From Escherichia coli (lineage in GTDB: Bacteria > Pseudomonadota > Gammaproteobacteria > Enterobacterales > Enterobacteriaceae), in NCBI RefSeq assembly GCF_022846255.1, contig NZ_AP025682.1: 64,000 nucleotides of DNA; one strand, 5' to 3'. The notes under the pieces were generated by a model. It did not search any database and had not been told where the DNA came from. It saw only the letters and a list, made by a program, of their open reading frames with translations. Positions 20,050-22,036 of the stretch are shown piece by piece (the stretch's first letter is position 1; the number at the start of each line of letters is the position of its first letter). The position numbers and the translations under genes were made by a program.

Positions 20050-21270
20050 TTAATCCATTCTGCCTCTTTCTTTTCCTGATAATGCAATAATAGAAGTCAG
20101 ACCTGACAAAATAATGATAAAAGATATTAATGCTAAAAGGATCCATGATTGAGACCAATTGCGAAAATACTCATAAATATATCCCATAAAGATAGGTCCA
20201 AGAGAAGCTAATGTATAACCAATACCCTGAACAATAACAGATATTCGCTTGTTATCGTCCAGGTTTGTGGATAATTTCATTATTAGAGTGAAAATTACAA
20301 CAAATCCGCCTCCTTGTGCTATCCCACCAGTAAAGCTCCAAATTATCCAAAAAGTGGGAAAAATTAATATCAGAGAAATAGAGACTATCCAACATCCACC
20401 CATAACAACCAGCAGATATTCATATTTAATATAACGTCCTAGTGCTGGGATAATCAGTGCTCCAGACAGGGCCAACCCCTGAAATATTGAGGCAATGACA
20501 CCAGCGCCTGAAGCGCTGATACCACTTACTGACATTAAATATGCTGGTAACCATGCAGTAATTCCGTAGTAAATGAATAAATGAGCAGCAAATCCAGCAC
20601 TCAGAGATGCAATGACGATTTTTTGCTGCACCGAAAAAAAATGCGAATATTTCTGCCGTGTTAAGGCATATCCTGGTGAGATACTGGTTACTTCTTTATT
20701 CTGTGATTGTGATATCTGCCATAGTAACAATGCCAGTACTGGTAACCATACCCAGCTAGCCAATGCAAATTGCCATCCCATTATGTGTGCAATTGGTGCT
20801 GTCATTGAACTGGTAATCATAGTTCCGATATTAAGAGAGGATGTATATATGCCCGTTACTACCCCCATTCGATGACGAAAATCGCGCCCGATGATCATTA
20901 AACTCACAATATTTCCTGTTGCCAGAGCAGCACCAAGTATAAATGTCCCAGCTAATATACCGATTTCACCAGTGTAGGGGCGCAATAAAATCCCAATACT
21001 GGCACCAATTAGCGTGATCCACATACTTTTGTTGATTCCGATTTTCGATATGACCACAGAAATGATCGGAGTTAGGGTTCCAAAACATAAGACAGGTATA
21101 CTGGTCAGCAGTCCAGTTAACGTAGCATTTAGCTTCAAATCATGCAGTAGTGGCTGTAGGACTGGAGGAACAGCTGTAAGTGGACTTCTTAGATTCATCC
21201 CCAGAACAATCAGGGCAAGCAAAAGCATTAATGTTTTGTTAACCTTAGTCAATAATTTCACGGGATTCAT
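20050..21270 (-). CDS. MFS transporter (CynX/NimT-like)
   Basis: 406-aa 12-TM protein, low GC; divergently transcribed from a TetR-family regulator. Confidence 0.75.
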   Translation of the reverse strand: MNPVKLLTKVNKTLMLLLALIVLGMNLRSPLTAVPPVLQPLLHDLKLNATLTGLLTSIPVLCFGTLTPIISVVISKIGINKSMWITLIGASIGILLRPYTGEIGILAGTFILGAALATGNIVSLMIIGRDFRHRMGVVTGIYTSSLNIGTMITSSMTAPIAHIMGWQFALASWVWLPVLALLLWQISQSQNKEVTSISPGYALTRQKYSHFFSVQQKIVIASLSAGFAAHLFIYYGITAWLPAYLMSVSGISASGAGVIASIFQGLALSGALIIPALGRYIKYEYLLVVMGGCWIVSISLILIFPTFWIIWSFTGGIAQGGGFVVIFTLIMKLSTNLDDNKRISVIVQGIGYTLASLGPIFMGYIYEYFRNWSQSWILLALISFIIILSGLTSIIALSGKERGRMD

Positions 21271-21385
21271 CTCACGCAGATACGATGGATAATAAGCATC
21301 CTGTTACATCAAGCTGTATACAATACTTGATCAAAAATGACCCGTCAGTCAACTTTATTGTGATGAACATGAAGAAGAGGAAAGT

Positions 21386-22036
21386 ATGAGCAACCAAGAC
21401 AATGTAATGCCGGCAAGAAAAAAGCGCAGTCCTAGCCTGATGAAAACCAAAAAAACACGCGAGTCAATCATCAAAGCAGGGATGGAGGTGTTTATTGAGC
21501 ATGGCTTTGCTGACGCAAAAGTAAGCGAAATCAGCAAAAAAGCAGGAGTCGCTAAAGGGACTGTCTATAACTACTTTCAGACCAAAGAAAGCCTTTTTGA
21601 AAGTGTTTTACGAGAATTTATTGTTGCTGCACCAATGGAACTAAGATCTGAGCCTCGAAAGCATGGGGAAAGTATAAAGCAATATCTGCAGCGCGTGCTT
21701 TTACCTGTAATAAAAACTCTTGAATCATCAGGTCGTGCTCAGATTGCCAGATTAGTAATAACTGAAAGTGCCCGTTTTCCAGTATTGGCTAAAGCATATC
21801 TACAGGAAGTCCACCAGCCTCTCATTGATAGTTTGAAAATTTTATTAGAGGCTGCCTTTAAGGAAGGCGAACTCAAAAATAATAAACTAGCCCTTTATCC
21901 ACATATATTATTGTCCCCGAACTGGCTAGGTATTGTCCACAACGGAATGCTTGACCCATCAAATCCACTTAATATAGGGGAGTTATTTGAGGTTGGACTG
22001 GATCTCTTTTTTGATTCAGTTAATGAACAATTGTAG
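21386..22036 (+). CDS. TetR/AcrR-family transcriptional regulator
   Basis: 216 aa, N-terminal TetR HTH (ESIIKAGMEVFIEHGFADAKVSEISKKAGVAKGTVYNYFQTKESLF). Confidence 0.85.
   Translation: MSNQDNVMPARKKRSPSLMKTKKTRESIIKAGMEVFIEHGFADAKVSEISKKAGVAKGTVYNYFQTKESLFESVLREFIVAAPMELRSEPRKHGESIKQYLQRVLLPVIKTLESSGRAQIARLVITESARFPVLAKAYLQEVHQPLIDSLKILLEAAFKEGELKNNKLALYPHILLSPNWLGIVHNGMLDPSNPLNIGELFEVGLDLFFDSVNEQL

Follow-up and report, generated by a model that had tools for sequence, protein, structure and literature searches.

A divergent TetR-family regulator and cyanate-porter-group transporter gene pair with a predicted operator on a pheV island of Escherichia coli

Introduction

In Escherichia coli K-12, the regulator NimR binds the yeaM/yeaN intergenic region only (PMC5934670). 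The gene pair described here shares with the NimR-NimT (YeaM-YeaN) system the layout of a divergent single-target regulator and a transporter, and NimT, which falls in the same cyanate-porter group, is the closest characterised relative of its transporter. However, NimR belongs to the AraC family whereas our regulator belongs to the TetR family, the two transporters are only 27% identical, and the NimT substrate 2-nitroimidazole is not transferable to the transporter of the pair. CynX is a second member of the same transporter group. Its operon, cynTSX, is regulated by the LysR-type CynR and also encodes cyanase and carbonic anhydrase; near the pair there is neither a cyanase nor a carbonic anhydrase gene, and CynR does not accompany it either.

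In the TetR-TetA(B) system, too, a TetR-family repressor gene and an MFS transporter gene diverge from a short shared control region that holds a palindromic operator, and the ligand induction of that paradigm is what we propose for the pair. In contrast to our transporter, TetA is a DHA-type drug:H+ antiporter and not a cyanate-porter member, the sequence relationship being only at the family level, and the tet system has two operators where we predict one site.

Two further comparisons concern the regulator. RutR, also of the TetR family, binds as a single dimer to a 16-bp palindrome, TTGACCAnnTGGTCAA, the experimentally defined RUT box (PMC2952853). It is among both the fold and the sequence matches of our regulator, and our protein retains its DNA-contact lysines K51 and K61, but the two proteins are only 30% identical. 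In place of the RutR contact residues L55 and Y56, our regulator has Y and N; its C-terminal domain is of a different family (TetR_C_7), and no rut operon accompanies it. Among solved structures, AefR- and NalC-type regulators come closest in sequence, and they share TetR_C_7; they are distant (~50 bits), and their effectors and efflux targets are not transferable to our regulator. Our literature search found no paper linking a CynX-like transporter to a TetR regulator.

Location and distribution of the gene pair

The window, by which we mean the whole 64-kb stretch of E. coli DNA that was analysed, carries a divergent pair composed of an intact 406-aa MFS transporter gene on the minus strand (20050..21270, ATG at 21270) and a 216-aa TetR/AcrR-family regulator gene on the plus strand (21386..22036). 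Between the two start codons lies a control region of 115 bp (21271..21385), the length already given in the preliminary description. An alternative GTG start at 21261, three codons downstream, yields the 403-aa transporter called by the NCBI annotation and would widen the gap to 124 bp. The pair has a GC content of about 39% (0.394 in the transporter gene, 0.402 in the regulator gene, and 0.374 in the gap), versus 0.508 in the adjoining backbone and 51% in the E. coli backbone. The genomic island that holds it, at tRNA-Phe (pheV), is a mosaic and is otherwise rich in transporters and in genes for carbohydrate and organic-acid catabolism.

We delimited the module by blastn of five related loci (L002, L020, L015, L013, and L004) against the window. 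The DNA in common with loci of the Escherichia sp. MOD1-EC7003 type covers 19990..22036, and that in common with more distant relatives is limited to 20098-22014. The pair is missing from all 5,426 complete RefSeq E. coli genomes searched, and a DNA-level search of PLSDB plasmids returned no copy; at the protein level, the closest plasmid match is 44% identical and the matches are on alphaproteobacterial plasmids only. Of 100,044 species representatives, only 4 have a full-length relative of the regulator. As a regulator with a transporter, the pair is ordinary in kind; it forms a self-contained module of two genes, was acquired horizontally, and is rare in E. coli.

The flanks had been described as AT-rich DNA devoid of confident ORFs. 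Neither contains a Pfam-supported ORF, but the flanks are not featureless, since they consist of recognisable insertion sequence (IS) debris and DNA of a neighbouring module. On the left, the boundary is formed by an IS3-family element on the minus strand (18296..19556; orfA 19162-19509, orfB 18296-19063) with matches to HTH_Tnp_1, rve, and transpos_IS3. The element ends near 19556, which is also where the matches of E. coli genomes to the window stop. Between it and the transporter gene lies a decayed IS3-family transposase remnant (19668..20001; ~77% identical to genes annotated as IS3-family transposases). The left-flank query was matched in 1,182 of 5,426 E. coli genomes. A 114-aa ORF inside the remnant (19656-20000) is spurious, this stretch gives a weak HTH_Tnp_1_2 match (E 0.028), and the sole Rfam match of the flank search, isrC, falls within the IS3 orfA.

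The right flank (22037..22609) is non-coding and belongs to an adjacent GntR-MFS-SDR-enolase module shared with E. coli CH4784. That strain matches 22022-29145 at 98.8% and has no TetR/MFS pair, retaining a scar of ~18 nt from the 3′ end of tetR; the pair was lost or replaced there. Conversely, locus L020 carries the pair without the GntR module. We rejected a functional link between the two modules, as each occurs without the other. Within this flank, a remnant of ~230 bp at about 22334-22570 is IS110-associated: it matches E. coli 1105 and D8, where DNA 82% identical to 22352-22525 is unannotated, with a group II intron on one side and an IS110-family transposase on the other. No Rfam family, group II intron domains included, matched this remnant.

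The transporter and the regulator

The transporter is a member of the major facilitator superfamily. It matches Pfam MFS_1 (PF07690) at 2.3e−22 and 79.8 bits (cutoff 33.4), and its hydropathy profile has ten clear and two weaker hydrophobic segments around a central loop (187-215), as expected of ~12 transmembrane helices in two halves. The best-matching NCBIfam family is CynX/NimT (TIGR00896), to which the protein aligns end to end (protein 16-373, profile 1-353 of 355) with 202.6 bits, under the family cutoff of 406. By this curated cutoff, its sequence places it as an outlying relative of the CynX/NimT family. NCBI names one allele of the transporter “CynX/NimT family.” The CynX model NF007256 gives 112.5 bits, below its cutoff of 312. 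Over nearly the full length, identity is 27% to NimT (387 residues, E 5e−35) and 25% to CynX (3e−22); at this identity, and with a TetR-family partner in place of an AraC-family nimR, the gene does not qualify as a NimT orthologue. A PDB sequence search with the transporter found no relative.

A full-length alignment of the transporter with 13 relatives has 67 invariant columns, and the window protein carries all the family-invariant residues. The preliminary description had raised the possibility of a nonfunctional transporter, frameshifted in relatives; the gene turned out to be intact in the window and in every fetched relative, and a frameshifted allele of 221 aa occurs in two isolates.

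The regulator matches TetR_N (PF00440) over residues 28-74 (9e−17, 61 bits, cutoff 24), which identifies an N-terminal helix-turn-helix of the TetR family, and its AefR-like C terminus matches TetR_C_7 (3.4e−8, 33.9 bits, cutoff 22). An AF2 model (pLDDT 81.6) has 10 helices and predicts the all-helical, two-domain TetR fold with a C-terminal ligand-binding and dimerisation domain; in Foldseek, it has 394 TetR-type matches in the PDB at E ≤ 0.001. These structural matches are generic (TM ~0.6) and include RutR, CecR, NalC, and FadR, while the nearest solved structures by sequence are AefR (3cdl, 3.4e−13) and NalC (8ke8, 1.4e−11). The RutR models TIGR03613 and NF011584 score the regulator at 39 bits, against cutoffs of 368 and 230. 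The homology search of the ligand-binding domain that had been suggested earlier thus gave a TetR_C_7/AefR-like assignment but not a ligand: the generic matches by PDB sequence and Foldseek carry uracil, acyl-CoA, flavonoids, and c-di-AMP, and are uninformative. Across 11 aligned family members, 64 columns are invariant, and the window protein has all of them.

Conservation of the pair across lineages

In several Enterobacterales lineages the same divergent TetR/MFS layout is found again, surrounded by unrelated genes, and adjacency of the two genes holds across seven or more lineages, down to ~54% identity. Identity of the regulator to that of the window is 97% in L002, L003, and L020, 78% in L015, 73% in L013 and L014, and 56% in L017; the divergent pairs of Klebsiella indica (L004 and L021) are about 75-79% identical. 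Regulator and transporter are separated by a CMAS-like methyltransferase gene in L009 and L016, and a Serratia relative has the regulator, the operator, and a DoxX-like gene without an MFS partner.

The codon substitutions show purifying selection on both genes: dN/dS is 0.165 for the transporter and 0.103 for the regulator in comparison with L002, and 0.112 and 0.095, respectively, in comparison with L015, with dS in these comparisons reaching 1.8. Together with the domain searches and the conserved pairing, these values agree with the original description of a low-GC divergent pair of a TetR regulator and a CynX-like MFS transporter.

In the contexts examined, no catabolic or other enzyme gene is co-inherited with the pair. 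We also considered the neighbourhoods as a guide to the substrate and set them aside, because the contexts are inconsistent (PQQ dehydrogenases, DoxX, the CMAS-like methyltransferase, an AaeAB-like pump, MarR next to an old yellow enzyme, and genes of pyrimidine catabolism). The pyrimidine genes are of the reductive pathway and lie 1.1 kb from a 49%-identical Pseudaeromonas relative.

A predicted operator in the control region

On the basis of conservation, the likely operator of the regulator is an imperfect 24-bp inverted repeat at 21333-21356, AAAAATGACCCGTCAGTCAACTTT, which can be read as AAAAATGACC-CGTC-AGTCAACTTT. It contains a TGAC-N6-GTCA core (21338-21351), and a 16-bp core resembling the RUT box occupies 21336-21351. 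The TGAC-N6-GTCA core is matched at 8/8 positions in the window, L002, L015, L013, L004, L005, L009, and L016 and at 7/8 in L017; these loci represent seven diverged lineages in which the rest of the intergenic DNA is unalignable. In L020, one half-site is changed from GTCA to GTTA. The site is unique within the 64-kb window (PWM score 28.9, runner-up 10.9). The family operator consensus is AAAATTGACCCATGGGTCAATTTT; in the form TTGACCCATGGGTCAA, it has the same half-sites and spacing as the RUT box, of whose 14 specified positions the consensus matches 12 and the window site 10.

In the window, the core ends 34 bp 5′ of the tetR ATG, and 62 bp separate the transporter ATG from the 24-bp repeat. 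The distance from core to regulator start is constant at 34-38 bp in close relatives, whereas that from operator to transporter start varies between 64 and 122 bp; in L009 and L016, the operator is ~275 bp upstream of the methyltransferase gene. Because the distance to the transporter varies, control of tetR is better supported than control of the transporter.

The preliminary description had singled out an 8-bp palindrome, TTGATCAA, in this region. The palindrome is present, at 21327..21334, where it adjoins the predicted operator and overlaps its left edge, but the conserved element is the inverted repeat. TTGATCAA persists only in the window, L002/L020, and L015, is partly kept in L004 (AGATCAA), and is absent in L013, L005, L009, L016, and L017. 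We therefore rejected it as an operator: its conservation stops at relatives of ~78% identity. At 8 bp, it has no statistical weight. Two other candidates, a pair of 15-nt arms (21299-21313 and 21326-21340, 73% complementary) and TGTATACA at 21315-21322, were rejected for want of conservation. A strict consensus scan found no sigma-70 promoter in the 115-bp gap; manual candidates are weak and inconsistent among relatives, and we claim none.

Proposed function and alternative explanations

Both genes are intact and constrained, their pairing is conserved, and so is the inverted repeat. We propose, with a probability of about two in three, that the pair consists of a ligand-released repressor and an exporter of a small toxic organic compound, controlled through the single operator at 21333-21356. 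A homodimer of the regulator would bind the inverted repeat in the middle of the control region and thereby repress both the transporter gene and tetR itself. Binding of a small molecule in the C-terminal domain would release the repressor from DNA, and the transporter would be made. The transporter, as a 12-helix cyanate-porter member, would then most likely export the compound in the manner of NimT, with the outward direction inferred. Points against this explanation are the 27% identity to NimT, the TIGR00896 score under the cutoff, the lack of a promoter in the strict scan, the diverging contexts of distant relatives, and the Serratia regulator and operator without an MFS gene.

The direction of transport could instead be inward, with the regulator sensing a nutrient or metabolite and de-repressing an importer whose substrate feeds enzymes encoded elsewhere, in the way presumed for CynX and cyanate. 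CynX, a presumed importer, belongs to the cyanate-porter group, the catabolic content of the island would suit such a role, and both the proximity of the Pseudaeromonas relative to pyrimidine catabolism genes and the likeness of the operator to the box of the pyrimidine sensor RutR point the same way. Yet in no lineage has an enzyme gene been inherited along with the pair, the GntR module is separable from it (absent in L020, and present in CH4784 without the pair), and the transporter is slightly nearer to NimT, an exporter, than to CynX. We favour export because in the contexts examined the pair is never accompanied by a catabolic gene and because the exporter NimT, itself under a divergent single-target regulator, is the closest characterised transporter (5e−35 versus 3e−22 for CynX); we regard uptake as unlikely.

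The operator may effectively be a RUT box, in which case RutR, the uracil/thymine sensor of the host, could bind the island site or our regulator could occupy host RutR sites. We consider such cross-talk improbable. A broader version, in which the main targets of the regulator lie elsewhere or in the RutR regulon and its adjacency to the MFS gene reflects co-transfer, would fit the constant spacing of the operator to tetR and its variable spacing to the transporter, the Serratia relative with its DoxX-like gene, and the 12/14 match of the family consensus. It is very improbable given that TetR-MFS adjacency persists so widely, that the 64-kb window has one site only, and that a dimer bound in the 115-bp region would be 62-67 bp from the transporter start codon. 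Finally, the view that the pair has no function and is decaying, as cargo caught between IS remnants, is hardly tenable: the IS debris on both sides, the loss or replacement in CH4784 with its tetR scar, the 221-aa allele, and the altered L020 half-site have to be set against two full-length ORFs with every family-invariant residue and dN/dS values of 0.10-0.17 at dS up to 1.8.

Significance

The value of this result is modest. Anonymous annotations of a “TetR/AcrR regulator” and an “MFS transporter” can now be read as a defined module with a specific predicted operator, which provides a direct handle for EMSA, reporter work, and ligand screening. The pair also moves between Escherichia species on the pheV island. 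If RutR cross-talk were true, an acquired module would be tied to a core regulon, and its cargo might be pyrimidine-related or nitro-heterocyclic. Should the cargo be an antimicrobial, for example a nitro-heterocycle, tracking the pair as a mobile tolerance determinant would be worthwhile; if not, it would be one more accessory transporter.

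Intact genes under constraint

A divergent, low-GC pair of genes for a TetR-family regulator and a CynX-like MFS transporter had been outlined in the preliminary description, and both full-length open reading frames were found where it had placed them. The transporter gene lies on the minus strand (20050..21270, 406 aa) and the regulator gene on the plus strand (21386..22036, 216 aa), with an intergenic gap of 115 bp (21271-21385). The genes have a GC content of 0.39-0.40, the gap 0.37, and the adjacent backbone 0.51. The NCBI start of the transporter is a GTG three codons later, which gives a protein of 403 aa and a gap of 124 bp. 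The transporter matches Pfam MFS_1 (profile search, 2.3e-22) and, from end to end, the NCBIfam model TIGR00896 (CynX/NimT) at 202.6 bits, half of the curated cutoff of 406. In the regulator, two domains exceed their gathering scores: a TetR_N helix-turn-helix (9e-17) and a TetR_C_7 domain of the AefR-like kind.

Both proteins keep all invariant positions, align with their relatives over the full length, and are intact and constrained (dN/dS for MFS and TetR, respectively, of 0.165 and 0.103 against L002, a close Escherichia relative, and of 0.112 and 0.095 against L015, a more distant relative). These sequence comparisons suggest that the transporter is functional in general. Frameshifting of the transporter in relatives, named in the preliminary description as evidence against the pair, is not general: we found one 221-aa frameshifted allele, near T8/A6 homopolymers, in two isolates of the Escherichia sp. 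MOD1-EC7003 lineage.

A conserved predicted operator

When the intergenic regions of ten loci were aligned, the single similarity common to the diverged lineages was one inverted-repeat element, the predicted operator, at 21333-21356 of the window (AAAAATGACCCGTCAGTCAACTTT). The corresponding elements are AAAAGTGACCCCGTGGTCAACTTT in L015, AAAAATGACTCAGAGGTCAATTTT in L013 (another distant relative), AAAAATGACCTAAAGGTCAATTTT in Klebsiella indica, AAAAATGACCCATAGGTCATTTTT in Serratia, AAAATTGAACGATGGGTCAATTAT in L017 (also distant), and ATAATTGACACTCGTGTCAATTTA in Klebsiella pneumoniae L009, and the family consensus is a perfect palindrome, AAAATTGACCCATGGGTCAATTTT. Its TGAC-N6-GTCA core is kept at 8/8 positions in eight loci and at 7/8 in a ninth, and the palindrome is conserved at a fixed distance from tetR (34-38 bp from core end to start codon in the closer relatives). 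An arithmetic estimate puts the expected number of occurrences of an 8-base pattern in a 200-bp region at about 0.003. A symmetrised weight matrix, built with the window site included, scores that site at 28.9 versus 10.9 for the next best in the 64 kb, and a degenerate pattern search of the window returned no second operator site. In MOD1-EC7003 (L020, 3900-4000), the right half-site reads GTTA, not GTCA; this change and the 221-aa transporter allele may mark the onset of decay or come from sequencing errors in the T8/A6 homopolymers.

The palindrome noted in the preliminary description, TTGATCAA, is present at 21327-21334. It only abuts the operator and is missing in L013, Serratia, L017, and both K. 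pneumoniae loci (L009 and L016), and we rejected it as the conserved element. A strict promoter scan of the gap found no promoter. Separately, the 348 bp that separate a methyltransferase gene from tetR in K. pneumoniae L009 contain a perfect 40-bp palindrome (7846-7885, TTTACATGTTCATGGCTGTTAACAGCCATGAACATGTAAA), which is not the TetR operator.

The RutR box, TTGACCAnnTGGTCAA, is bound by one RutR dimer (PMC2952853). The central 16 bp of the predicted operator have the half-sites and spacing of this box. The regulator is only 30% identical to RutR and falls below the RutR equivalog cutoffs. Of the residues through which RutR contacts DNA, K51 and K61 are retained here; in place of L55 and Y56 the regulator has Y and N. 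The resemblance lies in the way in which the protein probably sits on DNA and is not one of family membership.

An independent module within a mobile island

The tRNA-Phe gene (29022-29097) and the P4-type integrase gene that precedes it (27562-28824) place the pair inside a genomic island at pheV, and the right-hand backbone (yqgA, speC, nupG) matches E. coli at 99.8% identity. Metabolic genes, transport genes, and IS elements together make up this mosaic island. An IS3-family element (18296-19556) lies directly left of the pair; genes for a GntR/FCD regulator, an ACS-type MFS transporter, an SDR, and an enolase-superfamily protein (22610-27163) lie directly right. Elsewhere on the island, a second MFS transporter (11834-13024, minus), unrelated to the pair, weakly matches CynX/NimT (41.7 bits), and consecutive genes for methylthioribose kinase, methylthioribose-1-phosphate isomerase, and a class II aldolase (4730-7786, minus) resemble the cluster for salvage of SAM by-products (the "DHAP shunt") described in pathogenic E. 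coli. Inside orfA of the IS3-family element, a full-length Rfam match to the isrC "sRNA" family (RF01387, 135 bits, 19355-19477, minus) falls on sequence that codes for transposase.

The earlier view of the flanks as lacking confident ORFs holds, a 114-aa ORF on the left side giving only a faint transposase-HTH signal, but the flanks can be assigned: the left one, and with it this ORF, to an IS3-family transposase remnant, and the right one (22037-22609) to the GntR module with an IS110-associated stretch. The DNA at 19668-20001 is 77% identical to IS3-family transposase genes, the left-flank query matches 1,182 of 5,426 E. coli genomes, and homology with MOD1-EC7003-type loci begins at 19990, 60 bp beyond the transporter stop codon. 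On the right, about 230 bp of non-coding DNA (22334-22570), conserved within the GntR module in E. coli CH4784 and L002, is about 80% identical to DNA of E. coli 1105 and D8 that has a group II intron (ltrA) on one side and an IS110-family transposase gene on the other. An Rfam search of this stretch matched no family; the stretch may be an IS110-type leader that persists without the recombinase gene of its element.

The pair is a module independent of the GntR module. In CH4784 (L001), the GntR module is present from window position 22022 on (98.8% identity) in a pheU island, with an integrase fragment where the pair would be. A scar of tetR, its last ~18 nt (AATGAACAATTGTAG; CH4784 11990-12010, window 22019-22036) with the stop codon, is fused to this fragment, and the CH4784 island therefore derives from a version with the TetR/MFS pair. 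MOD1-EC7003 is the reverse case: the pair adjoins the pheV side of the island and the GntR module is missing. Both are present in L002, another assembly from the MOD1-EC7003 lineage. L002 (GCA_039856675.1) is labeled Shigella flexneri; its identity is 99.2% to MOD1-EC7003 and only 83-88% to the E. coli backbone (yqgA-speC), so the label appears wrong. Between the window and L002, dS is 0.09-0.26 in island genes, far less than the 0.82 of backbone yqgA; Escherichia lineages that had already diverged must therefore have exchanged the island. The pairing itself is conserved: in more distant relatives, the shared DNA is limited to the pair and its gap (DNA identity of 72% in L015 and ~68% in L013 and K. 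indica), among unrelated neighbors.

The pair is also rare. Megablast with 19557-22021 found it absent from 5,426 complete RefSeq E. coli genomes and 72,556 plasmids, and full-length relatives occur in 4 of 100,044 species-representative genomes (MOD1-EC7003, K. indica, a Serratia marcescens assembly, and an Enterobacterales MAG). Among 5.8 billion protein clusters, TetR relatives number nine strong (E of 1e-64 or better; all named ones from Enterobacterales) and one marginal (E of 6e-5). The exact TetR protein is found in E. coli on 39 contigs of public assemblies, annotated by generic family name only.

Relatives, neighbors, and substrate

Among solved structures, the best sequence matches of the regulator are AefR (3.4e-13), the flavonoid sensor FrrA (6g87/6g8h), and NalC. 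Its AlphaFold model (pLDDT of 81.6) matches many TetR structures equally (TM of ~0.6) and offers no pointer to a ligand. A PDB sequence search with the transporter found no relative. The transporter shares 27% identity with NimT (5e-35), an exporter of 2-nitroimidazole, and 25% with CynX (3e-22). NimT itself is under the control of a divergent single-target regulator, NimR, which belongs to the AraC family (PMC5934670).

Neighboring genes across lineages give no consistent substrate clue. TetR relatives lie beside a CMAS-like methyltransferase and an MFS gene in K. pneumoniae (L009, L016), beside a DoxX-like membrane protein gene in Serratia (L005) and L013, and beside an AaeAB/FUSC-type efflux system in Methylosinus. 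In four lineages (L011, L009, and the Methylosinus L098 and Haematobacter L099 plasmids), distant relatives with 35-55% identity are one to three genes away from PQQ-dependent dehydrogenase genes; the PQQ and DoxX neighbors form a recurring link to quinone and periplasmic oxidation. A Sphingomonas transporter relative is downstream of MarR and old-yellow-enzyme genes. Another, in Pseudaeromonas (L103, 1-6146; 49% identical), is near reductive pyrimidine catabolism genes, 1.1 kb downstream of those for dihydropyrimidine dehydrogenase, dihydropyrimidinase, and a carbamoylase-like protein, a single case, but notable in that the operator of the E. coli module resembles the RutR box. Mainly because the pair is not accompanied by any co-inherited enzyme gene in the contexts examined, we favor a stand-alone tolerance or export device over a catabolic entry step.

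We infer that a TetR dimer would bind the repeat at 21333-21356 and repress both divergent genes, the transporter gene presumably included, until a small ligand releases it; the transporter, a distant relative of the cyanate porter, would then export this ligand or a related compound. The outline reading of the preliminary description is correct and the finding real, and our analysis adds a specific operator prediction, the boundaries and mobility of the module, its rarity, and the identity of its flanks. The pair is an uncharacterized new member of a very familiar type of system.
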